Source: Malacoraja senta (taxonomy: Eukaryota). From it: a stretch of 64,000 nt of DNA. Below, piece by piece: positions 2,575 through 58,729 of the stretch. Under the pieces are notes generated by a model. That model ran no database searches and was not told the DNA's origin. It worked only from the letters and a program-made list of their open reading frames with translations. The stretch is taken from contig CM075993.1 in NCBI GenBank assembly GCA_038087875.1, positions 7,442,001 to 7,506,000 on the forward strand. Reading direction: 5' to 3'. Position 1 is the stretch's first letter. Each line of letters starts with the position of its first letter. The position numbers and the translations under genes are program-made.

Positions 2575-2577
2575 TAA

Positions 2578-3250: not shown

Positions 3251-3482
3251 GAAGATGTGACCATGGCGAAAATGTTGGAGGATTATATACTGTAACTAGA
3301 AGTCATAGCCTCAGAATTAAAGGGCATTCTTTTAGGAAGGAAATTAGTAGAAATTTATTTAGTCATGGAGTGGTGAATCTGTGGAATTCTTTGCCACAGA
3401 AGGCTGTAGAGGCCCAGTCAGTGGATATTTTTATGGCAGAGAGAGATAGATTCTTGATTAGTACAGGTATCATAGGTTATGG

Positions 3483-9369: not shown

Positions 9370-9372
9370 TTA

Positions 9373-10566: not shown

Positions 10567-10753
10567 GGTAGACAAAATTGCTGGAGAAACTCAGCGGGTG
10601 TGGCAGCATCTATGGAGCGAAGGAAATAGGCAACGTTTCGGGACGAAACGTTGCCTATTTCCTTCGCTCCATAGATGCTGCCGCACCCGCTGTGTTTTCT
10701 CCAGCAATTTTGTCTACCTTCGATTCTCCAGCATCTGCAGTTCCTTCTTGAAC
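10567..10753. mobile_element. Fold-back (inverted terminal repeat) Penelope-derived mini-element
   Basis: About 74-bp inverted arms plus a one-sided tail of about 35 bp; 15-bp TSD ATATAAGCCACCATA (10552-10566 / 10754-10768). Confidence 0.8.
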
Positions 10754-18103: not shown

Positions 18104-18271
18104 AGGCAGACAAAATTGCTGGAGAAACTCAGCGGGTGCGGCAGCATCTATGGAGCGAAGGAAATAGGCAAGGTTTCGGCCTTCGCTCCATAGATGCTGC
18201 CGCACCCGCTGAGTTTCTCCAGCAATTTTGTCTACCTTCGATTTTCCAGCATCTGCAGTTCCTTCTTGAAT
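18104..18271. mobile_element. Fold-back Penelope-derived mini-element
   Basis: Inverted arms as in 10567-10753; 13-bp TSD ATGGTCTTATACA (18091-18103 / 18272-18284). Confidence 0.8.
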
Positions 18272-21888: not shown

Positions 21889-23037
21889 TTACACCATCAG
21901 GTATTTATTTTGCACAAGCTTTAGCAGTGAGAGAGCATCTTTTCCACTGTCAACAGCTAAAGGGGCACCCTGCAATTAGAAGACTCTAGCGATCTGTAAA
22001 TAAATGTAATGGTGCCTGGGAAATCTGCAGAAGGTCCTTAACATTGGAGAAAAGTTATCACAATTCTTAAAGTTTCAGCTGTTGTGACACTCGCAGCGAT
22101 GCCAAACATGGGAAAGCGCTCAAAAACGTGAAGGGAAGAACTGTCAAATGTAAAATAAAACGTGAAACACTGCTGCAATTAGCAGCAAAAAGAGGAAGAG
22201 AAATGAGAGCAAGGGAGAAAAGAATGAAAAGCTGTTATTGAATCAGGCATATAATCAAACCAATTTTCAATGACACAATCTGTACCCATTTGACTGTCAG
22301 AAAGGCAGCAGACGTCAGCTTCATGGAGCTTTACATGATAAACTACATTATACTCCTCCCTTTAGCTGATGCACGGTGTCGGGTACTGAGCCGTCCTACA
22401 GCACTGAATGCGAGCATGGTGGGATGGAACTGCAGATGCTGGCTTACACCCAAGATAGACTCAAAATGCTGGAGTAACTCAGCAGGACAGGCAGCATCTC
22501 TGGAGAGAAGAAACGGGTGACATTTCGGGTCGAGGTAGAAAGGTCTCGACCCGAAATGTCACCCGTTCCTTCTCTCCTGAGGTGCTGCCTGTCCCTCAGA
22601 GTTACTCCAGCATTTTGTGTCATTCTTCGCATGCATGTTAGTCTACAATCTACACACATCGCCTTACATGCGGCATATATTTTAACCTTACAATCCATAA
22701 ATACCCAACATACTTGGGCAGCACGGTTGCAGAAGGGTAGAGTTGCTGCCTTACAGTGCCAGAGTCCCGGGTTCGATCCTGACGACAGGTGCTGTCTGTA
22801 CAGTTTGTACGTTCTCCCTGTGACCGTGTGGGTTTTCTCCGAGTTATCCGGTTTCCTCCCACACTCCAAAGACGGACAGGTTTGTAGGGTAATTGATCTC
22901 AGTAAAATCTTTAATTGCCACTAATGTAGGAAATGTTAGCGTGTGGGGATCGTTGGTTGGCCCGGACTCAGTGGGCACAAAGAGCCTGTTTCCGTGCTGT
23001 ATCTCTGAACTAACTGCTTGTATGACCATTGCAATTT

Positions 23038-23553: not shown

Positions 23554-24036
23554 GACCATTGCAATTTAATCAAAAAAATACAGGCTGTTTCCAAAAATAC
23601 AGTGATGATTACATTGCCACCTTCTCTCCTGCAACTTCAGCCCTCACACACCTTCTCAAAATACCCTGGGAGGCAGTCAAGAGAATTTAGTTGAACAGTA
23701 ATAATGCCTCTTTGAATAACATCATTGTCATAACTCTTCTCTGACCTTATTTTCCTCAGAGTGGCATAAAATTCTTGACATTTTCCATGTTAGAGGTTTT
23801 AATTGCAGCGTTGCATGACACAGTGACATCCCCCTCACAGAAAACGGTTTCAATAGCAAGAAAAGAATTGAGTCACACACACCAATGAAACAAGCCCTTC
23901 TGCCTGACTTGTGAATGCTGTCCGCGTACCCATGTAGACTAGCCCCATTTGCCCTTGCTTGACCCATATCCCTCCAAACATTTCCGATCCAATGTACCTC
24001 AAGTGGCTTTTAAATGCTCCTGAAACTGTTTCATCT

Positions 24037-24235
24037 GTTTAAGAAGGAACTGCAGATGCTGGAAAATCGAAGGTAGACAAAAATGCTGGAGAAACTCAGC
24101 CGGTGAGGCAGCATCTATGGAGCGAAGGAAATAGGCAACGTTTCGGGTCGAGACCCGAAACGTTGCCTATTTCCTTCACTCCATAGATGCTGCCTCACCG
24201 GCTGAGTTTCTCCAGCATTTTTGTCTATCTTCAAT
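24037..24235. mobile_element. Fold-back Penelope-derived mini-element
   Basis: Near-perfect hairpin centred on CGTTTCGGGTCGAGACCCGAAACG; TTTCATCTG repeated on both flanks. Confidence 0.75.
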
Positions 24236-26068: not shown

Positions 26069-29000
26069 TAAGAATCCATTCAGCCCACAATGTCCATACT
26101 AGCCCTCTGGAAACCAGTCCCTACGGCCCACAACACCCATACGCACTCTAGAAAGCCCCTGCCCCCCCACTGGCCACCAATATTGGAATTGGTGGAGAGG
26201 TGGAATATTACATTGGGGGACCAGCCCTCCCGTGTGAACATGGGACCCAACGGGTCCCACTTAGTCTAGTTCTTAAATAAAGGCTCAACATTAACCACCC
26301 ACCAGCCCTCTGGTACATGACCCTGGGCTAAGATTGATGCAAATGTCTCAGGCAGGATTTCCAATATCTTTATCTTCCCACGATGTTCTTTAATACATCT
26401 GATCAGGTCCCATAGATTTATCTACTTTCATACGTTCTAAGATGCCCAAAGCCTCCTCGCTTGTAATGCACACTATCCCCAAGACATCCCCTTTAACTTC
26501 CCCGAGACCCTGGCCTTTATATCTTGCTCCAAGGGAAAAATAGAGCAGAATTATTCATTGAGGTCTTCACCTGCAGCTTCACATATAGATGTCAACTTTG
26601 GTCTCTGAGAGACCCAATCTTTCCCTGGTTACTGTTTTTCCCTTAATATATTAATAAAATCTGTTTGGATACTCCTTTATTATCTCTGATCAGATTACCT
26701 CAAGCCCCCTTTTGTCCCCCTCTCTGTTTCCTTCTGCTCCTCAATCCCTGTACTGCTCCAGGGATTTTGCTTGATCCCAGCCACTTGTCCCTAACCCATG
26801 CTCCCTCCTTTTTTCTGACTGGAGCCTCAATATCTCTTGTCCTCCAGAGTTCTCCAATCCTGCCAGCCTGGCCCTTCATGCTACAGGAACAGGCAGACCT
26901 TGAACTCTTACTAATCTGCAGGGTCTCGACCTGAAACGTCGCCTATTCCTTCACTCCATAAATGCTGCCTCACCCGCTGAGTTTCTCCAGCATTTTTATC
27001 CGCCTTTGAAAAAAGTCAGTCAAAGTATCCTTTATTGTCATTGAGACCTTTCAGTCTGAACAAAATTTCATGCTTTGCAGTCATAACATAGAATAAAATA
27101 ACAAAACACACAATGAACACAGATTTAACATCTTGCTATCTTGCTAAATGAGAGAACTCTTGCTATCTCACTTTTAAATGCCTCCCTTTGCCCACAAACA
27201 ACCTATTCCAATCAAGTGATATAAAGGTCACTAAAAAAGTGGTCAATATTTATTGATTTTTAATGTTCTATTTTATCCAGCCATTCCCATAGACCTCTGT
27301 AGACCACCAATCGAACTGGTTCTTACTATGGAATTAGTTTTCACAGCATAGCTTGAAAGCACTCTTAAAATTAGCAGCTACAATAACATCACAAAGGTGC
27401 CCTGCTGTTCATATCTGCTTTGCCTTTTTAAATGCAGGCTGCGTCAATCTTGGAGCACTTCAAAGATTTCAAATGCGTTCAAGCGGAAGAAGGATTCTGC
27501 AGCAAAGGTAAAGTGCTCGTGGAACTCCGAGGATCTGTGGAGGGAATGTGCATGGAGGAACTGCGGATGCTGGTTTAAACCGAAGATAGACACGAGAAGC
27601 TGGAGTAACTCAGTGGGTCAGACAACATCCCTGGAGAAAAGGGATGGGTGACGGGACCTGAAACATCGCCTATTCCTTTTCTTCAGAGATGCTGTCTGAC
27701 CCGCTGAGTTACTCCAGCTTTTTTCGTTGTCTATCTTTGGATCTGTGGAGGGAATGGACAGGCGACGTTTCATGTTGAGGCCCATCTTCAGACCGACCCA
27801 GCATTCAGGTTTATTGGACAATGCACTAACACACATCCTCACAGTTAGCACTTGCTGATGGCCACAGTCATTGGCGACAGCATTTGATTCATCGCTTGTG
27901 TCAATGAATAAAAAATGAGAGGGCGAATAGAATAAAATTCAAGATATAAATAGACATAACACATTATATGCCAGTCCTGTCATATCAGCAAACACCCCAT
28001 ATAATGAATGACATGCCATTTAACTGCAATGCAACCACGTATGTGTGATTAACATTTACAGCTCAACACACCCCCACAGCCCACACAACATTGCATCCGC
28101 TACCACATGACAATCAGCAGGACACAACAGGGCCTCCTACACATTCGGACACCACAGGGAGTTGATCAATGAGGAAGATGATTTTGTTTTCAAATCCATT
28201 TCCTGGATCTGGGAGTCACCAACTTGGTTTGCATTTATTGCATATCCTACGGCCCTTGAGCTTGCCAGGGCGTTTTTTAGGGTATTCATGTCAACCTCAG
28301 TGGTGGGTCTGAATGAAGAAGGAACTGCAGATGTCGGTTAACAAAACAAAAAGGATACAAAGTGCTGGAGTAACTCAGCAGGTCAGACAGCAACTCTGGA
28401 GAACATGGATGGGTGACGTTTCAGGTTGGGACCCTTCTTCAGACTGCTTGTGGTAGTGGGGGGAGGGGGCGGGGACAGGGACACAGAAAGCTGCGAGAGA
28501 GGTGGGGGCAGCACAAAGCCTGGCAAGTGGTAGCTGGATAAAGGGGAGGTTCGATAACATGTAGGAAGAAGGAAAAATAAGATTGATGCAAATGGGAGTT
28601 TACTGGTCAGCATGGACACTGTGGGCTGAAGGGCCTGTTTCCATGCTGTATCTCTCCAGGACACTAAGAACATGCCAAAGTCCTGCAACAGAGATCAGTT
28701 TTACAAATCTCAGGATTCTGCAGCCCAAACTTTAAACTTTCCCCATTGTTAACCATGTCTTTTGTTGTCGCTGTGTTCGGGTTTCAAAGCTGGGGGAGGT
28801 GAGCAGACAGCGATTCAGCGAAGGAGGTTGACATTGAAAAGTAAAGGAACAATTTAGTTGAAAGTGGAGCACAATGAAAAGGAAACATAGGAACCGTTTA
28901 TGTTGCATTTAAGGAAGAACTGCTGATGCTGGAAAATTCGAAGGCAGACGCAGAAAATGCTGGAGAAACTCAGCGGGTGAGGCAGCATCTATGGAGAGAA

Positions 29001-30367
29001 GGAATAGGCGACGTTTCGGGTCGAGACTTCCCTCTGGAAGGCGACTCCGGACTGTCAAAACTGCCACAGCCAGACATAAACAGCTTTTTTCCACGAGTAG
29101 TAGCTCTACTCAATAAACAAAAATCTGTAGCCTTTTGCTCTGGTATTTTATTTAATTCACATGTTTAATCGATAATGTTTTATTATTAATATTTAATGTT
29201 TTATGTCAATCCAACCTGTCACTGTATGTCATGTTGTCACTTGTGGGCAGAGCACCAAGGCAAATTCCTTGTATGTGAATACTTGGCCAATAAACTTATA
29301 CATTAGATGCTGCCTCACCCGCTGAGTTTCTCCAGCATTTTTTGTGTCTACCAACCGTCTATGTTGTGTTCTTTCAGTCTTTTATTTCTCTGGATCTCTC
29401 TTCATCAACCCTCCCTTTGATTGTCCCCTCAGGCCTCTGCAGACAATGTTACTCTCCCATCGTAAGATCCACGCCTCCCTTCATCCAGCACCCAGTTCAG
29501 ATGCAGCCATCTTGTCATTTCCCCACACCAAATCCTCCCTGCCGTCTGCTTCCAAAACCCAAACACTGCTAATATAGACACAAAATGCTGGAGCAACTCA
29601 GCAGGTCAGGCAGCCCCTGTGGAGAAAATAAATAGGTAACATTTTGGGCCGAGAACCTTCTTCCGACACAAAATGTCACCTAGTCCTTTTCTCCAGAGAT
29701 GCTCCAGGACCCGCTGAGTTACTCCAGCATTTTGTGTGCATCTTGGGTGGCAACCAGCATCTGCAGTTCCTTCCTACACATATACTGCTGAGTCCCTTGC
29801 CCACAACCTGTTTCTCTGTTTTAACATTGGAGATTGGCGATAGATTGGAAGGAGGGCAGAGTTGCAGACAACTCTGGGTCCTTCATCTATGCCAGATGAA
29901 GGACCCTGCTCTGAAATGTCGACCCTCCATCGTCCTCCACAGATGCCGCTAAACCCACTAAGTTCCTCCAGCATGTTCGTTATTGCTCCAAATGCTGGCA
30001 TCCATGTCTCGTGTCTCACATAACCATCCAGGCAGCATCCTCTCTTTGTTCACAAATAGCTTGGATAAACAATCTAACCAGGTTAGCTCCATCTCTTCCC
30101 ACCCCCTCCACAGTTGCTACATCACAGCGCCAGGTTTGATCCTGACGACGGGTGCTGTCAGTACTGAGTTTGGACCTTCTCCCCCCGCTTGGGTTTTCAC
30201 CGGTAACTCCGGAAAGTAGGACCAAAGACAGGTCTCTGCCGGGGCAAGGCAGCAATTCTACCGCGGTGCCACTAATATTTAAGCATCCGCCAGAACTGGG
30301 ATGCACATTTCCTGCTTTATTTTTCCCTCCCAAAACGTACCAGATCAACATACTTACCTGAGAGGCT

Positions 30368-34242: not shown

Positions 34243-34435
34243 CTAATCGAAGTTCTCCAAAATTGCCACATCCAATCTTCTTACCGACCCTAAAATTCGG
34301 TCCAACCATAAGAACCCCCGACTGGTTGGAGCCGGGGCGAGTGCCATACGGACTGCGTCCAGACTGCTTGCTCGGTCGCCGACTATCATCAACTTTCTCC
34401 TTCTCTCGCTCTCTGCTTGTCCGACCAGATTCCAT
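34243..34435 (-). CDS. CSNK1G1: Casein kinase I gamma, first coding exon (N-terminus, Gly-rich loop); paralog assignment tentative
   Basis: Translates [14 protein letters not shown]...[27 protein letters not shown], the CK1-gamma signature. ATG lies in a strong Kozak context (GCCATGG). Phase-1 donor TAG|GTAAG at 34243/34242. Family is clear; G1 is preferred over G2/G3 only from N-terminal resemblance (SRE.., TRP). Confidence 0.93.
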
Positions 34436-34661
34436 GGCAGCAGCTCGGTGACGGCTGAACGGTGGAAGTCCAGAGCAGTTGTGTTAAAGCTGCCAATGTG
34501 GTGGGCAATGCTGAGTCCTTTAGTGCGGGTAAAAGCAGTCATTGAACAGCATGGCTGTCTTCACATCCCATAGCCATCCATCCCCTTATTGCCAGAAAAC
34601 AAATTAAGTCCTTCCGTCTTCATGGATGCTTCTCATTCACATTGGCGATGTGGAAACAAGC
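34436..34661 (-). promoter_or_regulatory. 5' UTR part of the CSNK1G first coding exon, with multiple uORFs
   Basis: Acceptor TTTGCTCTTGATTTTCAG|G at 34662/34661. Non-repetitive sequence with nine ATGs upstream of the main start. Confidence 0.75.
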
Positions 34662-35963: not shown

Positions 35964-37505
35964 TTAAGAGCAGACTTTGTATCTGCAGACAAATTGTACA
36001 GGTAGGAACTGCAGATGCTGGAGTAACTCAGCGGGTCAGGCAGCATCTCTGGAGAAAAGGAATAGGTAACATTTCGGGTCAAGACCCTTCTTCGGACTGA
36101 GAGTCGAGGTAGAGGCAAACTAGAGGCACAAAGAACAAATGAAAGGTATGAAAAGAACAAATCAAAGCCAGCAACAATGATCCAGAAAAAGTGGAGCCCA
36201 CAATGGTCCATTGTTGACCGTGGAAAAGGTGATACAAAGGAGTAGATACAAACAGTGAAACTAAGCAGGAAGACAGTGAAACTGGTGTGATGGCATATTC
36301 ATACCGCTGGGTTGTAAGCTGCCCAACCCAAACATGAGGCGTTGTTCCTCCAATTTGCATTTGGCCTCACTCTCACAGCGGAGGTTGCCCAGGACAGAAA
36401 GGTCAATATGGGACTGGGGAAGGGTTCAATATCTGCGGAGACTTGAGAGATGCAAGATGGCGCCGCAGTGTGGCGACTCTTTGCATGTTGTCCCAGAAGA
36501 CAATCTGCTACGATCCACAACAATCATTCCACTCATTCACTTGTGTATGATTGTACTCATGGTATGACTTGAATGGATAGCACTCCAAGCAAAGTTTTCA
36601 GTGTGAACGACTCGACTGTAATCATGTATAGTCTTTTCGCTAACTGGCGAGCACTCAACAAAAGCTTTTCACATACCTCGGCCAACATGACAATAAACTA
36701 AATTTAACTTGGTACACGTGACAAGAACAATAGACTAAACTAAGCCTTAAAGCTTCAATAGGGGCACTGCTCAGAGCTGAAGATTTAACATCTACATTGC
36801 ACCAGGAAGTATTTAGTGGGTTCAATGAAAGTAAATCAATAAGGAAGAACACAAACATCTTGGCCTCTCTTTGCACGAAAGGAAAAGACCAGGAATGACA
36901 TGATAACACCTTTAAAAACGACTCTTAAAAAGCCTAATGGAAATCTGAAAAAAAAACTTACATTAGGATGTTTAAAAGATGATTTGTTTTGCCACAGTAT
37001 GATCAACATGAATTGATCTCAGGGACCCTGGAAAAAACACAAAGGAGAAAGGATTATGGTTAGATGAGGAAGGATAAAATACCATAGAATCAATGCAGGG
37101 GTTCCGCAAGGTATAGATTACACTTCGTGAGTTGGAGATTAGAACATTCTGCATTAGTTCAGAGAGGATCAGTAGAAATCAAGCATAGATTGATTGCCCG
37201 TTCATCCCATGCTGCCAAAAAAAATGGAGAGGCAAGGAACTGCAGATGTTGTTGTATGAAAAGACACAAAGTGCTGGAGTAACTCAGCGGATCAAGCAGC
37301 ATCTCTGGAGAACATGGATGGGTGATGTTGTGGGTCAGGGCCCTTATTTGGACTAATGGGGGGGGGGGGGGGGGTTGTAAGAAAAAACTGGAAGAGAGGG
37401 GCACAGGATAAAGCCTGGCAGGTTGATACAGGTGAGGAGGGTTTCTTTGATAGGCAGATAGTTGGACAAAGGCCAGCGACAAACAAAAACAAAAGGAGCA
37501 AGTTA

Positions 37506-39931: not shown

Positions 39932-41307
39932 TAAATTTCTTCAGGCTCCATCGGACCAGTCACCTTAGATACCCGAGATGGAATAAAAACCACAACACAA
40001 GGAGAATTAATGTTGCAACCTAATGATCTGCCGATGGATCAATTGAAGTGGAAAAGCGTACAGAGATGCTTGAACCCAGTAAATTTCCTTTGAATGATTG
40101 TGATGAATTTCTGTGCAATACATTTTGCCGCATCCGACAACAATGAAATCATTCAAATAAACTCCGCTCACACTTTGAATCACGTACTTTTGCTGTGTCA
40201 ACTGCCACGTACAATTTAGAGGATGTGAATATTTAGAAATGGTGCATGATAAAGGAGGGATCTATCCCCCAGAACATGTAATGGAAACCTGCACAATGTG
40301 CAATGTTGCAATTTCTGATTGTGACTTGCACCGTAACTCGATGACCTCCATATAAATCAATATCACAGCCAGCTAATGGCCACTGAAAGCTAATGCAGGC
40401 ACTCTTCGTAGCAGTAGTGTTAAACAGTGCCACAGATCGTCTAGTAAGAGCCCTTTCCCATGTGGGCAGGAGACCTCCCGAAGGAATGCAAGAGGCAAGA
40501 TTGTTTCATTGTCATATGTGGGTCGTGTTCAAGAGTTTGGTTTCGTTTATTGTCGGGTATTCAGAGGTACAGTGAAAAGCTTTTGTTGCGTGCTCACCCA
40601 GTCAACGGAAAGACGGTACATGATTACAATCAAGCCGAACTGAAGAAAAACACAAAATGCTGGAGTAACTCAGCAGGACAGGCAGCGTCTCTGGAGAGGA
40701 GGAATCGGTCATATTTCGGGTCAGGACCCTTCTTCAGACTGAAGGGATTTGACCCGAAACATTACCCATTCCTTCTCTTCAGAGATTATGCCTGTCCCGC
40801 TGAGTTACTCCTGCATTTCGTGTCTATCTACAGGGTCTCAGGTGCTGTAGGGACTAGTGTAGAACGGAGGCAACATAACCAAAACTACAGATACAGCTCC
40901 ATAGATGCTGCTGCACCCGCTGATTCTCCAGCATTTTTGTGTACCTACAGAAACATCTAGCAATTATAGCAAGATCATTTCTTAAGAAATGAATGGAGGA
41001 TATCTCCATGCAATCTAACATCTATGCATGAAATCAAGCTCCGTCGTTTAGTGCTAAGAAACCAGACTTGAATGACATAGGAATCGCCCAGCCATCCACA
41101 TTGAATGGATATATCGTTGTCACGAAATGCAACATTTTTCTGTTATGTTTAAATGCCTTACAGTAAAAATGAGTTTGTATGTTCATAAGCCATAGGAGCA
41201 AAAGTAGGCCATTCAGCCCATCATGTCTACTCTGCCATTCAATCGTGGCTGATCTATCTTTCCTTCTCAACCCCATTATCCTGCCTCCCCATATCTCGAC
41301 ACCCTTA

Positions 41308-41951
41308 AGGGCCTGTCCCACTTGGGCCGTCACTTGCGCGACAGGCCGGTAGTGATGGTCGCGTGACGGTCCCGCGAGAGTCGCGCGCATCATCATGCGC
41401 CCGCACAGCGGTCTGGAGCGCATGACATCATTTGAAGATGGACACAAAATGCAGGAGTAACTCAGCGGGACCAGCAGCATCTCTGGAGAGAAGGAATGGA
41501 TGACGTTTCGGATCGAGACCGTTCTTCAGTCTGAAAGAAGGGTCTTGACCCGAAACGTCACCCATTCCTTCTCTCCAGAGATGCTGCCTGTCCCGCTGAG
41601 TTACTCCTGCATTTTGTATCTATCTTCAATCTTCTTGGCCCCGCTCTGGGAGGAGGAGTGGGGGCAGATCCGGATCCGCAACGGCCATGAGCCCCAGGCT
41701 GAGTTTGACGATCGTTTGCCTGCTTCTGCTGCTGTTGGAGGTGAGACGCTGCGCCGCACCAGGGTCTTGGGCCTGTCCCACTTTGGCCGTCGGTTACCCG
41801 ACAGGCTGGTGGCGCGTGAAGATTTCGTGCAGGATGAAGTCCACATTCCTCCACGCCACTCCACACCACTCCATGTGCCCGTCCCACACTACCCACACGC
41901 TAGCAGGTCGCGTATATGGCGCGCTAAAGACAGCCAAAAGGGACAGGCCCT
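41308..41951. mobile_element. PIF/Harbinger-like MITE (composite) inside a CR1 end, interrupted by a Penelope hairpin
   Basis: AGGGCCTGTCCCAC...GGGACAGGCCCT; removing it with one TTA restores the CR1 sequence ACCC-TTA-CTAATCAAG; second left TIR at about 41768. Confidence 0.75.
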
Positions 41952-43304: not shown

Positions 43305-46300
43305 TCACTAATCAGCCAAATGACATCAAAGCCCCTCTCGTTTCTCTCCCTCTTCTTCATACAAAGGATTACAGACAACACACCTGGGGTTTCCAATGTG
43401 GCTAATAAGGCCAATGTGGAATCCATAGTCTCTGCCCTAACCAGAAGACAGAGGAGCAGATTTAGGCCATTTGGCCCGAGTCCGCATCGCCATTCGATCA
43501 TGGCCGATCAATTTTTCCCTCGCAATCTCATTCTGCCTCCCCCCCACAACCTTCGACGCCCTCACTAAGGTGGCCGCGTACAATGGCAGACTCGCTGACG
43601 GTCTGTCGTGTCCTTTTCTTCTTTTGGTGTATCTAGTTTGTTGTTAAATGTATGTCTTAGTGTATCTTTAGTGTTATGTGAGGGGTGGGGGGGGGGGGGG
43701 CGGGGGAAACTTTTTAAATTTCATTCCTCGACGGAGATGCGACCTTTCCGTATCGTAACTCCATCCCCACTGCGGCCTAACATCGAGGAGCTGGCGGCCT
43801 CTTGCTGGGGCTCGACATCTTTCATCTTTAACACTCAACACAACAAAAGCGTTGAGAAAAATATATCCCAAGTCGAAGTGTGTAGAAAGGAACTGCAGAT
43901 GCTGGCTTACACAGAAGATAGATGCAAAATACTGGAGTAACTCAGCGGGTCAGGCAGCATCTCTGGAGAAAAGGAGTTGGTGACGCTTCAGGTCAAGACC
44001 CTTCTTCAGACTGAGATTCAGAGGAGAGGGGAACTAGAGATATGAAAAGATACAAAGACAAGTGAATGGAAGGTCAAGTAACCCTTGCATCCTCTCTCTC
44101 TCTCTCCCCCCTACTAGTTTCATTGTTGTCCTACTTATTTTCACTGTTTGTATTCACTCATTATGACCTTCTCCACAGCCAACAATAGACCATTGTGGGC
44201 TTCCTTGATTTTTTTGATCATCATTGCTGGCTTTGATTTGTCCTTTTCATGCCTTTTATTCACGCGTTCTTTGCACCTTTTCATATCTCCAGCTCCCCTC
44301 TCCCCCGAATCTCCGGCTGCAAGAAGGGTCTCAACCCAAAATATCAGCACGTTCCTTCCTCCAAAGACGCTGCCTGGCCTGCTGAGTAACTCCAGCAATG
44401 TGTGTCTATCCCAAGTTGAAGTCTGATTTAGGAGAGGTGACATTTGGTCAATGGGCGGGAGCGCTTTGAGAATAGAATTCCAGAGAATGGGACACACACA
44501 CAGGCAACTGATGCACAGACCAAGCTCATCACCCTCAGCATCACACCTAACGCTCTCATTATAAAGTGATTCTGCAGCCAGCTGAGCACTTTGGAAGATC
44601 CCAGTGGTTAATTTGAAACCCTCATTAGCTGCTACATTTCTTCCACGCAACAGTTCAGCTGCTTTTGACAGCATCCAGCCATTGACAGCATGGGGAACAC
44701 ACTTGGATATGACCCAAAGGTTATCAAGTATCTTTAAAATTGACTCATGATTCTCACAAGGGAATTAGTCTGGGACCTGCAGAGATAACCTCACAGAGAC
44801 GGCTGTAAATTACCCCTTTGACAGTGTCTTCATATTCTAGCGTGTGGATTATACTGATAAACTGGTGAATTATTCCAAAGAGAAATTTTAACAGGAATGG
44901 TAAAAGAGGAATTTGAGGTCAGAACAATGAGCATGAACATCGATACATGGAGCAATTGGTTGGGGATACAGACACTGGACTTTGTTGGCCTTGAAACAAC
45001 CATGTGAATGGCAGGCCCCGAATCGCAAGGCTGGTTGGAAGAGGGATACGGTACTGCCGAAAACAGCCTTACACTGTGGGCTACGTGCCAATGAAAGCCT
45101 GGGGTGTGTGATCTAGAGGGGAAAGCACAAGTCAAAACTATCTGCAAGAAAATGAGGAAGATGGTGCCAAACCCATAATGGATGACACTACAGATAAGAG
45201 ATGCCCAACAAAGCAGAGCGTTTCCAGTGTTACAAAATACTTAGACTTATCTTCTAACGCGGGAGAAGAACAAAGGGAAGAGATAAGACTTTTGCCTTCC
45301 ATCACAGTGAGGAGGTGTTGGAGATTCTCTGTGATGGATGTTTGTGTAAATTGTGTTAAGTGTGTGTCTTGTTTTTTTTTGTGATGTCATGACTGCAGGA
45401 ATGAAATTTCGTTCAAACCTTGTCTGTTTGAATGACAATAAAAGGCATTCTATTCTAACCTTTAGACTTTAGAGATACAGCACAGGCCACCAAGACCATG
45501 CCGACCAGTGATCACTTCCGTGCACCAGCATGATCCTACACACACTCGGGACAATTTACAATTGTTACAGAAGCCAATTAACCTACAAACCTGTACATCC
45601 ATGGAGTGTGGGAGGAAACCGGAGCACCTGGAGAGAACCCACAGTCACAGGCAGAATGTACAAACTCCGCACAGACAGCACCCGTAGTCAGGATTGAATC
45701 CGGGTCTCTGGCGCTGTAAGGCAGCAGCTCTACCTGCTGCGCCACTGTGCCGCCCTGATGCAGAAACAAACAACAATCAGTCTTCGCCCCATCACGCAGT
45801 TAGGATTAAAATGGAATGTGGTTTCAAGTGCTGAAGGCAAGAACAGCAAGAGTATAGATGAATGTGTTCTGACTAACAGAATATTAATGCAGCAAAATGT
45901 TAACGATTCTATTTCTGAGGCAAGGGAATGCATTGAAATAGTCCTATATTGATGTGCTTTTCCCCATTATAAAAAGATAATGATACATTCGATGAAGAAA
46001 ACGCAATTGAAAAAACACAAGAGGAAACAGGTCATCAATCTGAAAAGTCAACTGTTTCTCCCTACCGAGCAAATGCAGTGTTTTGTTTTCATTTTAGATT
46101 TCCAATGTCTGCATTTTTTTTAGGTTTTGCACAAGCACAGTTTTGTATGAATAACACCTCCTCTCTATCCTTAGCAGGAACACAAATATTCACACTAATT
46201 AAAGATGAGGAGCACCGTTCTCCCATCCAAAATCATTCTCGCAGAACTATACCCAGTTTCTCATTGCAATCCCCACTTGCTCCTTGGATGATTCCAAGAT

Positions 46301-46868: not shown

Positions 46869-48563
46869 ATTTAGTTTAGTCTACACATGCAGCATGGAAA
46901 CAGGCCCTTCTGCCCATCGTATGCTCATTGAGTCCGACCAATCATCCGTTCATACTAGTTCTGTGCTCTCTAATATAAAAATTACCATAAAAACCTAGCC
47001 CTATCGGACACAAACTGTCATTTTAGTAGCAAATACATTCTCCAAACTCAAACCAAAAAGTGGTTAAAATGTGGTGATAAGAATCACAGTGGTAGAGTTG
47101 CTGCCTTACAGCACCAGAGATCTGGGTTCGATCCTGACTACAGGTGCTGTCTGTATGGAGTTTGTACGTTCTCCCCGTGACCTGCGTGGGTTTTCTCCGG
47201 GAGTTTCAGCTTCCTCCCACACTCCAAAGATGTACAGGTTTGCAGGCTGATTGGTTTGGTAAAATTGTAAAATTGTCCCTAGTGTGTGTAGGATAGTGTT
47301 AGTGTGCGGGGATCGCTGGTTGGTGCGGACTCTGTGATCCGGAGGGCCTGTATCTCTAAACTAAACACAGAACCCCAAAGCGCAGTGAGAGACCATTCAC
47401 CCGGTTACACGTGAGTATCCACTTAATTCCACTTCCCTCATCTAATCCATAATCATGCAATTATTTCCTTTACAAGTACACATCGAAGATAAACACAAAA
47501 CGCTGGAGTAATTGTGTTCATCTTCTGTTTAAACCAGCATCTGCAGTTCCTTCCTACACAAGTACACATCTAATCCCTTATTAAGATTACTACTAAATCT
47601 GACTATTATCCTTTCATCATATTAGTTCCTAGCCTTACAAGAAATTGCATTCCTTATTCCAGTCTTTTCAAAGATGTGCAAAACAGTGTGAGCTGGGGGT
47701 TTACAGACACAAATCTCGGAAGGTGACGGAATTTGCTGGGATAGTTTCAATGGGAGGCGGAAATAATACCTGGATTTATAAATAACTCAATAAAAAAAGC
47801 TCTTGAACAGAAAGGCCATGTTATAAAGACACATGGGGCAGGAGAGCTACACCAACCCCCCACAAGGGGAGGACAGAGAAGAGGGCAGAATCTCTTCTCT
47901 CGTGGGGGATTGGGGAGGGAGGAAATCTCCCCGAGAGTAGAACTGAGGCAGGGGTCCCTTCTTCGGAATAGAGAATGGAGGAGGGGGCTTCTCTTTGTGA
48001 ACAGAATCAGGGGCTTGCCCACAGAGCAAGGAAGGAGCAGACAAGATGGACACAATATCCTGGAGTAACTCAGCGGGTCAGGCAGCATCTCTGGGGAAAG
48101 GATATATGTGACGTTTCGGGTCGGAACGCTTCTTCAGCCAGAAAGATAAGAGGCGGTGGGGGGGGGGGGAACTGGAGGTGAGAAAAGGCCAGAACAAATC
48201 AGGGCCAGTAGCAGATGGAGGGTGGAGCCCACAAGGGGCCAATGTTGGCTGGGGAAGATGTGCCAACGAGAGGGATACAAGGATGCGAACGACATAACTG
48301 GTGGGACGACAGGGGTGGGGGAGGGGAGGGAAAGAGGGCGGAGGGGAGGGGGAATGGGAGGGAATGCAGGAGTTACTTGAAATTAGAGAAATCAAAGTTC
48401 ACGAGCAGAGAAGGGCAGGAACCAAGGCACACCAAGATAAAATGGGGACAAACAAAAGACGGGATGGGTCTGACAAATAAAGAAGCAAATAAAGAAGTAA
48501 GGGGGAAAGATGAAGAGGGGGAAGTGAACAGTAGGAATAATATCACCTTGGACTACACCCTTA

Positions 48564-49169: not shown

Positions 49170-50461
49170 TTACGCTGCCCAGTAGCTAGTTTGAGAGCTT
49201 TGCAGGGCATGATTACAGCATTCCTGTAGGTTGTGATCACGCCTGGTACAATAGGATAATAATAGAGAATATCTTTCGAGTTCTGTGTCAGCAAAGATGC
49301 TCAACTATTTTCTCTCCCGAGAGTGCAGCTGCTTGGCTTTCAGCTCTGGGACTGGAGCCATGCTCTCCCAAGGCCAGGCTAAGATTTCAGCTGGTGAAGA
49401 AGCTGCTTCCAGGGGAATCACCAGACGAGCTCATCCATCAAAGCATCAAAGCTGTCTGCTCGCCAGGTGGCAGGAATCAACCCGGCCAGCCAATGCCTCT
49501 CGGATATCCAGGGCTTTCCATTCCAACCACTTCCCAACAGCTCGGTGCTAACATCAATCTGTTTAGTTATTCTTTAGTTTAGAGATACAGTGCGGAAACA
49601 GGCCCTTCGGCCCAACCACTCCACACTGACTGGTGATCCCTGCAAATTAACACCATCCTACACACACCAAGGACAATTTTACATTTATACCAAGCCAACT
49701 AACCTACAAACCTGTGCGTCTTTGGAGTGTGGGAGGAAACCGAAGATCTCAGAGAAAACCCACGCAGGTCACGGGGAGAACGTACAAACTCCATACAGAC
49801 AGCACCCGTAGTCGGGATCGAATCCGGGTATCTTGCGCCGTAAAGGGAGCAAATCTGCCACTGCGCCACCGTGCCTCCCCATGCAAACTGAACAGTTTAA
49901 AGAGCAAGGGCGCGCTCGAGACACGTTTTAAAACTTCCTATGGGGAGACCCAGCAATAACTTTTCTTGGGGAATGACATGTACACAAGCCAGAGACAGAA
50001 AATGCAACATGACCTTACCCGGTAATTCATCATACATCTCGATAGGAAACATAAAAAAAAAACGACAAAACCCCTCTAAATTTAATGCTTTGCTAAATAT
50101 TCACTGAGAATTGCATCTCCTGTACGCACAAATTCACAGGGACTGTCAGTGCCAGTGTGATCAAGGATTTCAGTAAAGCAGTGTGTTTTTAATTAAATAA
50201 ATGGGAAATGGGCAGTATTGCCAGGTAGATCCCACACACATCTCACTGTGCAGAATGTGCAGCCAGGAAAAATAATTAATCCACACGTTTGACGTTGCAA
50301 TGGGAACTGGACGAAATAATACTCTGCAAAAGATGAAATTATACAGAATAAATAAAATTAATGTAAGTCCCTACTTTCTCCTCCCCTTCTCAGCTCTGCC
50401 TCAGCCCACTGGCTCCACCTCTTCCTTTCTTCTTCCCGACCCCCCCCCCCCACCCTCACAT

Positions 50462-50497
50462 CAGTCTGAAGAAGGGTTTCGACCCGAAACGTTGCCC
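50462..50497 (+). ncRNA. Minimal hammerhead ribozyme motif in a Penelope terminal repeat
   Basis: CTGAAGA (50466-50472), A, stem II GGGTT-TC-GACCC, GAAA, CG, TT. All catalytic-core bases are present; helix I is weak; activity untested. Confidence 0.6.
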
Positions 50498-51220
50498 ATT
50501 TCCTTCGCTTCATAGATGCTGCCTCACCCGCTGAGTTTCTCCAGCATTTATGTCTACCTTCGATTTTCCAGCATCTGCAGTTCCTTCTTAAACATCATCA
50601 TGTAATTATCTTGTCAGAGAGTCATATAGTGTTGAAACAGGCCCTTCGGCCTGACTTGTCCACACCGACAAACATGCCCCACCTACACAAATCCCAACTG
50701 CCTGCATTTGGCCCATATCCCTCTAAACCTTTCCTATCCCTGTATCTGTCCAAATGCTTTGTAAACTTTGTGATAGTATCTGCCTCAACAACCTACTCCG
50801 TCCGGCATGATCATGATTCAGTAAGGAGTGTGGAAAGACATGCTCAGGGTATTGAGTTGCACTGAAAGATGCACCATGGAAACAGGCCCTTCGGCCCACT
50901 GTGCCCACGCCAGCCATCGATCACCAGCTCATACTAGTTCTATGTTATTCCACTTCCTACCCACTCAGGGCAATTTTACAGAGGTCGATTAACCTACAAA
51001 ACCACATGCATTTTGGATGTGGGAGGAAACCGAAGCACCTGGAGGAAATCTACGGGGAGAATGTGCAAACTCCATACCAGAGGTTGGGATCGAACCCAGG
51101 TCTCTAGCGCTGCGAGGCTGCAGGTCTGTCTACCAGTTGTGCCAGTGTGCTACCCTAAGGGCAAATATGCTCTTTTATGCATCCACTCACTACACACTTG
51201 GGGCAATTTACAGAGGCCAA

Positions 51221-51625: not shown

Positions 51626-52959
51626 TTAACCTACAAATCTGCATGTCTTTGAGATGTGGGAGGAAACCGGAGCACCCGGAGGAGAAGGTGCAAAATCCAC
51701 ATATATGCAGCACCAGCGGTCAGAATCAAACCTGGGTCTCTCCGTCTGTTTTTTACTGAGATCCCCATCGTGGAAGCCTGCCTTAAGCCAATTCTATGTT
51801 CAAGAAACAGATGAGAGCACCAGATACAACAAAGGCTGTGGCTTTAGTTACGGGAAACTGCATTCCAAAATGAGCCAGGCTACCATGGTTCAATTCTATC
51901 GGACTTTGGTTAGACCGATTTTTTGAGGATGGCGGGCAACTCTGGTCACCAAATTACCAGAAAGATGTTGAGACTTTGAACAAGTGACAATAGACAATAG
52001 GTGCAGGAGTAGGCCATTCGGCCCTTTGAGCCAGCAACGCCATTCACTGTGATCATGGCTGATCACCCCCATTCAGTACCCCGTTCCTGCCTTCTCCCCA
52101 TATCCCCTGACTCAGATATCTTTAAGAGCTCTATCAAAGTAACCCACTTTGGAGTGGGTGCGGAGGGAGTTTACCAGAATGCTGCCTGGATGAGAGGGAT
52201 TTCGGCTACAGGGAAAGGCTGAATAGACTTGGATTGATTTCTCTGGAACATCAGAGGTTGCGGGGAGATCCGACAGGTATATATTGATGGGGTAGACAAA
52301 ATTGCTGGAGAAACTCAGAGAAACATCCCGAAACGTTGCCTATTTCCTTCGCTCCATAGATGCTGCCGCACCCGCTGAGTTTCTCCAGCAAATTTGTCTA
52401 CCTTCGATTTTCCAGCATCTGCAGTTCCTTCTTGAACATATTGATGAGGTGGACAGGTTGAGAACCTTTCTCCCAGGGTGGACATGTCCAACACTAGAGG
52501 GCATAGTTATCTGGTGAGAGGGGGAAAGGTGAATGGTGATGTGCGGGGCAAGTTTTATTTTATACAGAGTGAGGGGCTGGAACCCACTGCCAGGGTTGGT
52601 GGTGGAAGCAGGAAGCAGTGCCGTTTAAGAGGCTTTTAGATAGGCATTTGGAAGTGCAGGGAATAGATGGATATGGAGGCCAAGTCACTGGATGGATTTA
52701 AGAGAGAGTTAGATAGAGCTCTAGGGGCTAGTGGAGTCAAGGGATATGGGGAGAAGGCAGGCATGGGTTATTGATAGGGGACGATCAGCCATGATCACAA
52801 TGAAAGACGGTGCTGGCTCGAAGGGCCGAATGGCCTCCTCCTGCACCTAGTTTCTATGTTTCTATGGATTATGTACAGGTAGATGCGATCAGTTTAATTT
52901 GGCATCATGTTCAGCACAAATATTGTGGGCCGAAGAGCCCGTTGTATGTGCTGTAACTG

Positions 52960-53540: not shown

Positions 53541-55596
53541 TACTGTTCTATGTGCTGTACTGTTCCATGTTCTAAGTTGAAGATAGGCACAAAGTACTGG
53601 AGAGAAGGAATGGGTGACGTTTCAGATCGAGACCCTTCTTCAGACACCCATTCCTTCTCACCAGAGATGCTGCCTGTCCTGCTGAGTTACTCCAGCATTT
53701 TCTGTCTACCTTTGATTTAAACCAGCATCTGCAGTTCATTCCTACGCACTATGTCCCAAGTTGTTCCTGTACAGATACTAAACTGAAATTTACATGACAC
53801 TTGCCCGAATAGACCCTGTCCACAATAATAGAGAACAATCATATATAGACAATTACTGCCCATGCTGGAATCTGGAATAAAAATCAAAATGCTGGAAGAA
53901 CTCGGCAGCTCAAGCAGCATTTGTGGAAGCAAAATGATTCATGCAGGCTCCAAAAGTCAACTTACTGCTTTTGTTTCTGCAGGTGCTGCTGGAACTACTG
54001 GATTTAGTTTAGTTTAGAGTTGCAGCATGGACAACGGTCCTTCAGCCCACCTTGTCTGTGCCGAGTAGACAAGTTCTATGTTATCCCGGTTTCACATCCT
54101 ACACACTAGGGGCAATTTACAGAAGCCAATTAACCTACAAACCTGTACGTCTTTGGAATGTGGGAGGAAATCGGAGCAGTCACGGTGGCGCAGGGGTAGA
54201 GTTGCTGCCTTACAGCAAAATGCAGCGCCGGAGACCCGGGTTCAATCCTGACTATGGCCGCTGTCTGTACGGAGTTTGTACGTTCTCCCCGTGACCTGCG
54301 TGGGTTTTCTCCGAGATCTTCGTTTTCCTCCCACATTCCAAAGACGTACAGGTTTGTAGGTTAATTGGCTTGGTAAATGTAAAAATTGTCCAGTATAACA
54401 TTGTTGAGCTTCCAGTATCCAGTGGACGCTTCGGAAAGTTCAAGGTGCAAGGTACAAGGAGAATACCCACGCGGTCACAGGGAGAATGTACAAACTCCGT
54501 ACAGATAGCACCCTTAGCCAGGGTCTCTGGCGTTGTAAGGCAGCAACTCTACCGCTGCACCACTGTGCCACTGGCATTTTGTTTTTCCGATGGGATGTTA
54601 TCAAAATGCTGGTCCACACCCTTTGTGATTTTATACTCCACGATTGAGTCCCCTTTCAACCTCTTCCTTCCAAGCCCTGCCTATTCAATCTACTGTCTGT
54701 GGAATTCTCTGCCTCAGAGGGCGGAGGAGGCAGGTTCTCTGGATGCTTTCAAGAGAGAGCTAGATAGGGCTCTTAAAAATAGCGGAGTCAGGGGATATGG
54801 GGAGAAGGCAGGAACGGGGTACTGATTGGGGATGATTGAATGCCGTTGCTGGCTCGAAGGGCCGAATGGCCTACTCCTGCACCTATTGTCTATCTCTCCT
54901 CATGTATAATTTTCTGGTCCTGGCAATGTCCTCTTTAATCTCCTTTCCAGTCCAGTCACCTCTTTCCAGTACGGTGACAAGAACGGTACATAATACTCAA
55001 GCTATGCCCTAACAAACATTGCATTCAAACATAACCCCCATGCCCTTACATTCTAGGTATGAATAAACAAAGGAAAACAACCTGCATGCATTTATAATCA
55101 CCTCATTGACCTGTTTACGGATCCATGGTATTCAGAAACAAGAACGAGAATCTGAAAATTGAGACAATGCGGAAACAGAAACCAAGTGCAGGTTGACAGG
55201 TGGAGTGAAGAGATCTTGCAGAACAATAGAACAGTGCAGCATAGGACCCTTGGCCCATAATATCTGTACTAACCATGATGCCAAATTAAACTAATCGCAC
55301 TGATCTGCATACGATTCATATACTTCCATTCCTTGCATTTTAATTGCAGCGCATTGTTGGCGCAGCCAAGACCATCACACAAACCAACCTCCCTTCTATT
55401 GACTCCATTTATACCTCACGCTGCCTCGGCAAGGACAGCAGCATAATCAAGGGCAAGTCACACCCTGGCCACTCCCTCTTCTCTAGTATAGAAGTGTATG
55501 GAAAGCGCGCGCCTCCAGATTCATGGACAGTTTCTTCCCACCAGGCAACAGAATGATCCGACCACAACCAGAGAACAGTGCTGAACTACTATCTAC

Positions 55597-55990: not shown

Positions 55991-57370
55991 CTATCTACCT
56001 CGTTGGTGATCCTCGGACTATCCTTGATCGGAATCTGCTGGCTTTATCTTGCACTAAACGTTATTCCCTTATCATTGTATCAATACACTGTAATTGGCTC
56101 GATTGTAATCATGTATTGTCTTTCTGTTGACTGGATAGCATGCTACAAAAGCTTTTCACTCTACCTCGGTACATGTGGCAATAAACTAAACTGAACTGAA
56201 CTTTAATGTGCCTGTCTAAATTCCTCTTAAACATTGCCACCACAGAACATAGAAAATAGGTGAAGGAGTAGGCCATTCGGCCCTTCGATCCAGCACCGTC
56301 ATTTAATATGATCATGGCTGATCGTCCAGAATCAAGACCCTGTTCCTGCTTTCTCCCCATATCCCTTGATTCCGTTACCTCTAAGAGCTAAATCTAACTC
56401 TCTCTAAGAGAGTTCCACAGAAAATACAAGGTGCAGAGTATCGCTGTGGTTAGTTCTTTCCAACTGGTGCTGTGGTTAGTTCTTTCCACCTGGTGTACAA
56501 TGCCAGGAGGAGTGGCACGGTGCCAGTGAGCGAGCTGGGAGCTCACTTCCCAGCGCCCTCGGAGGCGCTCCGGGTGTTCTGAGGCCGGCAACGGGAGGCG
56601 CCCTGGCGCAGAGTCGGAGCGCTGGCCGTGGGAGGCGAGGGAAGCCGTGTTCGTGGGTCAAGCTGTTGGCAGAGTAGTATTAGGCCACGGCAGGCCCTGC
56701 TGCAGCCAGGGGGTCGATTGGAACGGGCACCACAGGATGCCCCACAGAAGCTTTGTGTGCGGATTTGGATGCGGCCTGGCATGTCTTTCACCGCACGGGG
56801 CTGCGGTGGAAGACATCGACAACATCACCTGGCCAGGCTGACCACCACAACACTGACCCAATGCCATCACCAGGACACATGAAGACTACATTTTTAAGAA
56901 CTGAAATGAAACTTGAAGGATAAAAAATGGCACCAGCAACACTTGCGTACTGCGTCAGTGTAATCTACTATTCTTAAACGCTTGTACTAAAATATGATTG
57001 TGCTTATGAATACAAGATTTTCACTGGTGTATACCATAAAGGAATTTCACTGTACCTAGGTATATATTGCAATAAAGTACCAAAGGGATGTACAGGAGGT
57101 GCTACCTCAAAAAAGCAGCCAGCATCATCAGAAACCCATACCACCCAAACCACACACGCATTTCACTCCTAATATTGGGGCGAGGTATAGGAGCTTGAAA
57201 AGTGTAATGTGTAGGAAGGAATTGAACATGCTAATTTAAACCGAAGATAGACACAAAATGTTGGAGTAACTCAGCGGGACAGGCAGCATCTTTGGAATGG
57301 GTGACGTTTCAGGTCGAGACCCTTCTTCAGACTGAGAGTCAGGGGAGAAGGAAACAAGAGATATGGAATG

Positions 57371-57584
57371 TTTAAGAAGGAACTGCAGATGCTGGAAAAT
57401 CGAAGGTAGACAAAAGTGCTGGAGAAACTCAGCGGGTGCGGCAGCATCTATGGAGCGAAGGAAATAGGCGACTTTTCGGGCCGAAACCCTTCTTCCGAAA
57501 CTTTTCGGCCCGAAACGTCGCCTATTTCCTTCACTCCATAGATGCTGCCGCACCCGCTGAGTTTCTCCAACACTTTTGTCTACC
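57371..57584. mobile_element. Fold-back Penelope-derived mini-element nested in another Penelope repeat
   Basis: Inverted arms; 16-bp TSD CAAGAGATATGGAATG (57355-57370 / 57585-57600). Confidence 0.8.
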
Positions 57585-58729
57585 CAAGAGATATGGAATG
57601 GTAAGGTGTGAAAACGAGAGAACTACATAGACTTGGGTGTTTACAGAGTAATACGTTTACATATCTGTCGTTCTGCTCCATGTAAGAATTTCATTGTCCC
57701 GTTTCAGGACATATGACAATAAAACACTCTTGGCGCATCTTGAAGCAACCCGCACAACTTGAATTCTTCACAACCAAAATAAATGGAGAAATCTTGTTCA
57801 GATACAGGAGGCCAAATAACTGGAGTAGGAAGTGGTAATTTTCACACATACTCCTGAAAATGGTGGCTGACAGATGTTGCCAGGGCGAGTCAACAAAGCT
57901 TTGTTCTCCATTCCTTACACCAAGGATCAAAGTGAGAACATGTATTCTGTGGGCGCCAGCATTCGTCAGCTCAATAAACAGTAATTTCAGGCAACCAAAC
58001 ACACTAAAGTTGAAGGACGTTTTTGTGAAAGAGCAACTTTCATCTAATATCTTTTTTATGGAATGAAACCTCAGCAGTAATGAGGCCAGTGGCAAAGGAA
58101 GCTTCTCTTTACGCAAGTAGGCAATAAGCCCAAGGATTTTATGGTCCTAAAATAAATAATATTTCCATGTTTCATTTTGCCTTTGCATCGGAAGTTTCAA
58201 TAGCAAATGACAAGAGAAAATGCCTGCCCCATCTTGGTGCCCATTTAAATCAAAATAATCTTCTTTGATGTCTCGTTTTCACACCTTACCCTTCCATATC
58301 TCTGTGCCTCCCTCTCTCGACTCTCAGTCAGAAGTAGCATCTCGACCCGAAACGTCACCCATTCCTTCTCTCCAGAGATGCTGCCTGTCCCGTCTGAGTT
58401 ACTCCAGCATTTTGTATCTATCTATGATTAACTACAGCTACTCCTCACACTGGGCATGCAACTATTAACACATACGTGGTGTATGAACTCAGCAGATCAG
58501 GCAGCATCTGTAGAGGGAAATGGACATGTGGCGTTTCAGGTCCCAACCCGAAATGTCGTCTGCCCACCTCCAGGTTCAGGAACAGCTTCTTCCCAACAAC
58601 CATCGGGCCCTTGACCTACACAAGAAATATGTTATATATTTATAAAATATATCTTTTTCTTATGTATCCTTTACAGATATAAATAATAGCTGAATCTGTT
58701 TTGATGCATTTGGCGCTGTGTGTGTGTCT

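Follow-up and report, generated by a model that had tools for sequence, protein, structure and literature searches.

Predicted hammerhead motifs and inverted end-module insertions of a Penelope-like element around a CSNK1G exon of Malacoraja senta

In the stretch of Malacoraja senta DNA analyzed here (64,000 nt, hereafter the window), a minimal hammerhead motif recurs on both strands around an exon of the casein kinase I gamma gene (CSNK1G). The best explanation, in which we have good confidence, is that the motif is the pseudo-LTR hammerhead of a Neptune-type Penelope-like element (PLE) and that the copies in the window are end-module insertions made by target-primed reverse transcription (TPRT), neutrally decaying and inert in CSNK1G pre-mRNA. 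According to this explanation, the hammerhead would act in the RNA of the source element, and the short 5'-truncated insertions would arise by TPRT of uncleaved RNA from two starts ~33-35 nt apart. The element protein would nick both target strands and prime cDNA from each, with one reverse transcriptase (RT) beginning at the outer site and the other at the inner site. Both RTs would copy uncleaved RNA until they halt, either within the structure of the hammerhead region or where an RNA 5' end lies nearby, and the two cDNA ends would then be joined, often via the self-complementary segments of the hammerhead, to yield an inverted insertion that subsequently decays without function in the host transcript. 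For a related element, nicking and extension of both strands, two RT starts, an uncleaved RNA template, and a protein-assisted hammerhead have been described in the main account of PMC11167929.

The full-core pattern CUGANGA-N-N12-GAAACGUH matched nine times in the 64-kb window, compared with a mean of 0.00 and a maximum of 0 in shuffled sequences (n=100); in the usual hammerhead nucleotide numbering, these matches carry C3UGANGA9, G12AAA15.1, and U16.1 H17. Eight matches are on the minus strand (4990-5017, 27764-27791, 28415-28442, 41502-41529, 48110-48137, 53616-53643, 57303-57330, and 61910-61937, each named below by its higher coordinate), and the sole plus-strand match is 50466-50493. Because 61937 is a duplicate of 53643, within a duplicated block (50914-55662 / 59208-64000), eight of the matches are independent. 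The best-preserved minimal type I hammerhead (50464..50495, plus strand) consists of the stem I 5' strand (50464-65), the 5' core (50466-72), an extra A (50473), a stem II of 4 bp (50474-77/50482-85) capped by a loop of 4 nt, G12-A15.1 (50486-89), the helix III palindrome (50489-92), H17 (50493), and the stem I 3' strand (50494-95), and its predicted cleavage would fall at 50493/50494. This copy alone has Watson-Crick pairing throughout, in the four pairs of stem II as well as the two of stem I. The original prediction had called 50466(+), 28442(-), and 57330(-) intact, and all three are present, but the latter two have G10.1-U11.1 where 50466 has G-C. The ten sites that it had listed as decayed were likewise all found, although one of them, 53643(-), in fact retains every core letter with two G-U pairs; in 5017, 48137, 41529, and 27791, one stem I or stem II pair is broken.

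Across 20 aligned copies, position 10.1-11.1 is G-C in 9 and G-U in 8, while helix I, on which the original prediction is silent, is just 2 bp long, paired in 92.6% of cells, with a mismatch at the third pair. No hammerhead family was among the 21 Rfam matches in the window at E<=1, and the identity of the motif is based on the motif itself plus the published description of minimal hammerheads, not on Rfam. The miRNA-like Rfam matches on the inverted pairs were rejected as hairpin-driven artefacts, every one of them below the gathering score. The 50466 copy has the extra base between 9 and 10.1, the G10.1-C11.1 pair, and the palindromic helix III, and the proposed assignment to minimal type I hammerheads, with a palindrome in helix III and one base inserted after A9, agrees with the features given in the main description of that class (PMC4209133).

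The likely carrier of the motif is represented by a Neptune-type PLE relic (2575..3295, minus strand), which is 5'-truncated, frameshifted, and devoid of its RT domain, and which comprises linker and GIY-YIG coding sequence (3295-2762), a 3' UTR, and a decayed hammerhead (2646-2617). The Pfam GIY-YIG match of the relic (E 0.003) is under the curated cut-off, and its CCHH motif is represented by a CxxC that lies between the core motifs, together with the two His residues. A CX4CXXC linker is encoded at 2967-3302 in the shifted frame, and the relatives aligned to the relic have it too. Of 1202 longer proteins taken as candidates, 14 matched (best E 4.5e-44), the top ones being proteins of rays and sharks that combine an RT thumb with a GIY-YIG region, which points to a skate or ray as the probable host. 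The hammerhead at 2646(-) is on the sense strand of the open reading frame (ORF), ~115 nt 3' of the end of the relatives' GIY-YIG ORF; the ORF-end alignment upholds the earlier claim that the copy at 2618-2652 lies 3' of this ORF in the sense direction, with its core broken. The link can be read directly at three sites, 2646(-), 36095(-), and 48137(-), where ORF-end sequence is followed by the hammerhead, placing the pseudo-LTR just 3' of the ORF. In the shark relative P0004, the read-through C-terminus is a translation of the same motif in the same place; when proteins were searched for read-through of the end module, none of 22 candidates was such a translation. An older module (29893) carries U at N7, the letter implied by the shark peptide.

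Because the CX4CXXC linker, which Penelope and Poseidon lack, is present, we assign the carrier to the Neptune type and not to Penelope/Poseidon, an assignment that rests on the linker and the relatives, RT coding sequence being absent from the window. The proposal that the hammerheads were spread by Penelope terminal repeats therefore stands as far as a PLE pseudo-LTR is concerned, but not for the Penelope/Poseidon type. The main account of Craig et al. 2021 (PMC8557442) gives the linker as a hallmark of Neptune and Nematis that Penelope/Poseidon elements do not have; in Nematis it is reduced, and the window element is placed by linker and relatives rather than by an RT tree. Shared with the Neptune clade as described there are a C-terminal GIY-YIG with CCHH, a CX2-5CXXC linker, 5' truncation, an adjacent inverted copy, and a 30-40-bp tail at one end only. 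The insertion signs of endonuclease-positive PLEs, namely an inverted 5'-truncated neighbour, a one-end tail, and a target duplication, are all found in the window.

With a profile built from 15 window copies, the ~130-nt end module gave 56 hits in the window, including 52 arms at E<1e-5; the sites listed in the original prediction are real, yet many more copies exist. The end-module family is very abundant, with 83,484 public contigs matching 50450-50600 in one run and 52,226 in a run of another organism, where summed contig depth was not taken as copy number. Solo copies in the window include the pseudo-LTR end module with the best hammerhead, a conserved body, and a long 3' tail (50413..50595, plus strand, antisense to CSNK1G); the copy with the intact core 28442 (28316..28497, minus strand), located in the intron that follows the first coding exon and sense to the pre-mRNA; and 58274..58433 (plus strand), with a decayed hammerhead (58329). 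Two minus-strand solo copies extend back to the ORF, 36006..36455 into the GIY-YIG ORF end (hammerhead 36095, U4 changed) and 48040..48401 to the ORF end (hammerhead 48137, stem II mismatch). The older copy with the intact core 57330 (57213..57372, minus strand) has its upstream part split by a nested insertion (57368..57589). Older, more divergent versions of the module are present at 29880-29977 (+), 53855-53927 (-), and 62203-62270 (-), and apparent U4 changes at 29667 and 57497 were discarded as junction artefacts.

Many of the copies are head-to-head inverted insertions. Target duplications of 16, 15, and 13 nt flank 57368..57589 (joint within the hammerhead), 10567..10753 (6-nt self-complementary joint within the hammerhead), and 18104..18271, respectively; 27549..27740, nested in an older copy bearing hammerhead 27791(-), has one of 18 nt, and 52289..52437 (one joint outside the hammerhead; duplicated near 60583-60733) has one of 9 nt. 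The long and short arms of 24035..24235 are joined exactly by the stem II strands, with a 9-nt flanking direct match. The joint is in the stem II region in 22420..22630, in the core/stem II in 29569..29780, and upstream of both decayed hammerheads (44009-, 44317+) in 43879..44416. Both arms are short in 40638..40833 (decayed hammerhead 40737(-)) and in 41432..41630, which has a hammerhead in each arm (41529-, 41531+) and its joint at a near-palindrome around C3. In 4946..5115, the minus arm has the core letters (5017) and the plus arm begins beside the cleavage site, and in 53570..53748 (duplicated at 61890-62040), the minus arm has intact core letters (53643) and the plus arm begins at the cleavage site. 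A further copy, 7091..7324 (decayed hammerhead 7226(+)), has an internally primed inverted 5' piece in a twin-priming geometry.

The 3' ends of the copies fall at two positions ~33-35 nt apart, and among the head-to-head pairs with both 3' ends readable (n=12), 10 are long plus short, 2 short plus short, and 0 long plus long. Flanking duplications of 9-18 nt, read directly from the DNA, were found in 7/12 inverted insertions examined, and inverted insertions are therefore regarded as single events. Both arms were of the same subfamily in 11/11 pairs tested, and partner arms share 26 derived variants, compared with 12.4+-3.4 after re-pairing (0/20000), as would be expected either if they descend from one template lineage or if conversion between the arms occurred later. 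Long and short arms that share derived variants fit two primers copying uncleaved RNA, the mechanism that we infer. Both 5' ends were inside the hammerhead zone in 13/16 inverted events versus 6/20 solo ends (Fisher P=0.003), this zone being profile columns 61-100 (the hammerhead plus 5-7 nt), picked post hoc. The joints of these 16 events were hand-curated in one window with the duplicated block counted once, and the events include a local inversion (38230), a pair with a short remnant arm (58530), and the internally primed inversion (7091). Automatic scoring of 11 pairs placed 20/22 ends in the hammerhead zone, with details that differ from the hand curation, and among the joint rows listed for public contigs, 11/12 end at 50460-50475, the joint type being unspecified, in weak agreement with this zone. 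Clustering of 5' ends at the cleavage site was rejected, since only 4/33 zone ends are within 2 nt of it, with 4.1 expected; therefore, the templates were mostly uncleaved.

Several joints coincide with self-complementary segments: those at 24145 and 58530 use stem II, 10634 a 6-bp match in a shifted register, 41524 the near-palindrome at C3, and 53645 and 5020 stem I. Other joints have no microhomology or 1-8 extra letters. We tentatively suggest, as a possibility below even confidence, that the hammerhead completes PLE integration: two RTs, primed from opposite target strands and each using one of the two start sites, would copy either one uncleaved RNA or two sibling RNAs, which the helix III palindrome possibly keeps together, and would stall in the hammerhead, where the cDNA ends would anneal via its helices. 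If true, integration at the hammerhead would explain inverted pseudo-LTRs, the one-sided tail, and junction palindromes together, and the motif would have a structural role apart from cleavage.

Inverted copies might instead be produced without a second primer, by a single strand that folds back at a palindrome and primes itself. The derived variants common to both arms are compatible with such an origin, the stem II strands fold back exactly at the joints 24145 and 58530, with a 6-bp fold-back at 10634, and self-priming at junction palindromes has been proposed for rotifer elements (PMC3846280). However, the short arm extends further 5' in 7/10 long plus short pairs, which a simple fold-back cannot produce without later trimming, as the copy would bear a tail that is absent from its template. 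The joints with 1-8 extra letters or no microhomology also argue against it, as does the internal second priming in 7091-7324, and we consider fold-back rather unlikely. The rotifer case itself, the Adineta vaga Penelopes of Arkhipova et al. 2013 (PMC3846280), shares head-to-head inverted copies, target duplications, and palindromic joints with the window. The main part of that account, which predates the hammerhead finding, ascribes the joints to self-priming on an antisense template; in contrast, the joints in the window map to the hammerhead, and their arm geometry is mostly against a simple fold-back.

Alternatively, the template RNA could start just upstream of the hammerhead, in which case the cDNA would simply run off its end and the ribozyme structure would be incidental. 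This would fit the 7/33 zone ends at columns 61-66, the upstream edge, as well as loose ends of public contigs at 50461-50464 and the report that PLE transcripts begin within the upstream pseudo-LTR (PMC2377424, in its main part). The other 26/33 ends are nevertheless scattered over the motif, solo copies often extend past the upstream edge, and the upstream sequence differs between the subfamilies, so that the edge may be a mere homology boundary. Such a run-off appears rather unlikely.

Some further observations were made on these insertions. The inverted insertions at 27531-27756 and 57355-57600 are inside older copies of the same repeat, which suggests a preference of the element for its own pseudo-LTR as a target. 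At 38227-38250, the hammerhead segment of a copy that is otherwise direct has been flipped in situ; this segment and the arm at 29662 have three changes in common, including G12 to A, which hints at a source with a dead core. An 8-10-nt offset between the 5' ends of partner arms recurs and is used in no conclusion.

Whether the motif is constrained was assessed at the family and the copy level. Pairwise identity among 11 long copies was lowest upstream (0.45), intermediate in loop II (0.56) and the linker (0.71), and higher in the non-CpG core (0.79), the stem II strands (0.86), and the downstream body (0.91). Conservation begins at the motif, and the suggested comparison of core with flanks gave a divided answer, the core being better conserved than the upstream flank but, among these old copies, less than the downstream body. 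Two subfamilies (A and B) differ at 17 columns, 3 of them in the hammerhead, namely loop II, H17 (U/C), and 1.1 (G/A, both of which pair with U2.1), and all 3 are compatible with hammerhead rules; the differences fall in 0/23 constrained columns versus 14/94 downstream (P=0.07). The common genome-wide variants in public contigs preserve pairing (50482 A>G in 37-40%, turning U-A into U-G; H17 U>C in 22-26%; 1.1 G>A in 13-14%), a common G at H17 was never seen, and A14 was changed in just 0.1-0.4%, in a variant table that covers positions from 50480 on, so that the 5' core is apparently uncovered. In the window, a loop variant at 50478 is common.

CpG sites are prone to decay, and the catalytic G12 was changed in 8.5% and 7.9% of public contigs, compared with 2.9-12.1% for non-core CpG letters. 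Decay of the helix III CpG was lower (2.1-3.2%), at a place where coverage halves and favours one subfamily. A further run, from another organism, had lower CpG decay and was left out of this comparison. Stem II covariation, which had been put forward as a check, showed no excess over shuffles: 2 pairs with two-sided change among 20 window copies, a number reached in 270/500 shuffles. Genome-wide stem II variants in public contigs were compatible with pairing but one-sided only. Overall, the ribozyme is probably constrained at the family level, as judged from sequence, whereas there is no sign of constraint on individual copies, in which G12 decays like other CpG letters.

Predicted folds do not favour the hammerhead. 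For the majority sequence of either subfamily, imposing the hammerhead skeleton raises the energy by 1.9-7.3 kcal/mol above that of the best fold; the 5' strand of stem II is taken up by the four nucleotides that follow the cleavage site in subfamily B (P about 0.9) and pairs in a shifted register in subfamily A. Without tertiary terms, the double hammerhead of 50466 scored -6.5 kcal/mol and two monomers -12.4. For 28442 and 57330, the double form scored -0.9 kcal/mol, compared with -7.2 and -11.8, respectively, when the two monomers fold separately; a helix III duplex of 4 bp is worth -1.7 kcal/mol. Because helix I is 2 bp and the hammerhead fold is disfavoured by 1.9-7.3 kcal/mol, activity in the source element is only putative. 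These scores fit the published low dimer activity and protein-dependent cleavage: PLE hammerheads are described as cleaving weakly as dimers in vitro (PMC4209133 and the review PMC6765202, in their main parts), and an element hammerhead showed no cleavage without the element's protein in the main account of PMC11167929. The hammerhead of the source element probably cleaves only with help, from a dimer and/or the element protein.

Two possible switches were noted in the predicted folds. Positions 50494-50497 and their equivalents repeat the stem II 3' strand, giving the competing inactive hairpin (P about 0.9, subfamily B), which could be an off switch relieved by protein. In the body, a conserved 8-nt segment (50514-50521) can pair with either of two copies of a repeated box, 50542-50548 or 50568-50576 (profile columns 113-120 for the segment, 140-146 and 168-176 for the boxes), one before each 3' end, and pairing with the distal box is predicted to win when the tail is present; this alternative pairing could serve as a switch associated with the pair of RT starts.

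It could also be argued that the hammerhead has lost cleavage in this lineage and survives as a relic with a different function, such as an RT-stopping structure, cDNA joining, or protein binding. The 2-bp helix I, the dominance of competing folds in both subfamilies, and the lack of truncation of copies at the cleavage site would agree with this, as would the unimpaired in vitro insertion by catalytic mutants of the anole element in the main account of PMC11167929. However, the subfamily differences and the common genome-wide variants obey hammerhead rules in the part covered, with H17 never a common G, and a 2-bp helix I is also described for the Drosophila virilis element in the main text of PMC4209133. 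On balance, we regard a non-cleaving relic as unlikely and retain a putative, assisted cleavage in the source element.

A separate claim of the original prediction was that minus-strand copies, in pairs, could cleave CSNK1G intronic RNA. The first coding exon of CSNK1G is at 34243..34661 (minus strand), with an acceptor before 34661, the ATG at 34435, and a donor after 34243; none of the 16 motifs searched matched any other exon in the window. Positions 1-34242 are intron, which also runs upstream of 34661. Of the independent full cores, 7/8 are on the CSNK1G sense strand, 3 of these in the intron after the coding exon, and PLE hammerheads can cleave weakly as dimers in vitro (see above). However, the best copy, 50466(+), is antisense to CSNK1G, and the nearest same-strand partners of 28442 are ~0.6 kb off on each side and would be joined by 4+2 bp. 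The sole close same-strand pair, 57497/57330 (167 nt), was ruled out as a dimer unit, being a young insertion with a 16-nt duplication nested in an older copy, and its first member, 57497, is without C3/U4 and has a broken helix III palindrome. Nine inverted pairs fold to hairpins of -75 to -171 kcal/mol (71-92% paired) with the motif buried. Sense copies are not depleted (arms with the 5' core: 15 minus vs 8 plus, P=0.21, at low power), and 34662-64000 is possibly transcribed only in part. Given the weak pairing that also marks the double-hammerhead and helix III energies, the antisense best copy, the hairpins, the lack of depletion, and the background-rate decay of G12, cutting of the intron by double hammerheads of paired minus-strand copies in CSNK1G pre-mRNA is highly improbable; if true, it would touch many genes, but the evidence points against it, and we infer that the copies are inert in host RNA.

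Much of this is already published: the motif, its location, its dispersal, opposite-strand pairs, inverted copies, the tail, and junction palindromes. The main description of minimal hammerheads in PLEs by Cervera and De la Pena 2014 (PMC4209133) shares with the window the type I fold, the extra base between 9 and 10.1, G10.1-C11.1, palindromic positions 15.2-16.2, the pseudo-LTR location, thousands of dispersed single copies, and opposite-strand pairs 100-700 bp apart. Helices II and I are 4 and 2 bp here, compared with 7-8 and 4-5 bp in the Schistosoma motif. Fish Xena, Poseidon, and Neptune elements are reported there as carriers, and cartilaginous fishes are not named in that main description, supplementary alignments aside. 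As a ribozyme, the present motif is therefore a cartilaginous-fish example of a described class and little more. What could matter is the insertion anatomy, for which an abundant short family offers many natural junctions. The anole Poseidon element PAc of Frangieh et al. 2024 (PMC11167929) shares two RT starts that define the tail, insertion into its own pseudo-LTR, and an uncleaved template; it differs in belonging to another clade, and inverted copies are undiscussed in the main text of that study. We found no literature linking PLE inverted joints to the hammerhead, in a coverage of mostly open-access sources, and the supplements of PMC4209133 and PMC11167929 may show such joints.

Animal non-LTR retrozymes (bioRxiv 10.64898/2026.07.22.740005) are, in the main part of that preprint, likewise non-coding PLE-derived repeats with type I hammerheads. 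They form head-to-tail arrays with a hammerhead per unit, whereas the window copies are solo or head-to-head; no such arrays were found among the 52 window arms, in which the close same-strand pair is a nested insertion. In public contigs, head-to-tail joints lead from the long 3' end 50595 back to 50460, before the hammerhead (7 contigs, plus 1 in the run of the other organism), and 136-nt tandem units, retrozyme-like, may occur elsewhere.

The window has several other features. The block 50914-55662 is repeated at 59208-64000 (98.4% over 2954 nt and 95.2% over 1823 nt), directly after a 200-N gap (59008-59207), and may be an assembly duplication or a second haplotype. A Tc1/mariner-type transposase relic in three frames is at 16011-16988 (+) (Pfam DDE_3, E 2.9e-10). 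A coding fragment recurs in copies that are 91-94% alike (7590-8042, 14917-15360, 19364-19756, 35465-35872, 38365-39108, 51221-51627, and 59516-59922); the single copy tested had no Pfam match, and the fragment presumably resembles the 3' end of a CR1-like LINE. A large inverted repeat (8155-9501 and 8674-8982; 96% over 601 nt) encloses a palindrome and is likely to be a non-autonomous DNA transposon; the copy at 2575 is broken up by a related repeat of short units. Finally, a 263-aa open frame at 20439-21230 (-) matches Pfam ALKBH8_N (E 1.6e-12) and is probably a retroelement 3' fragment.
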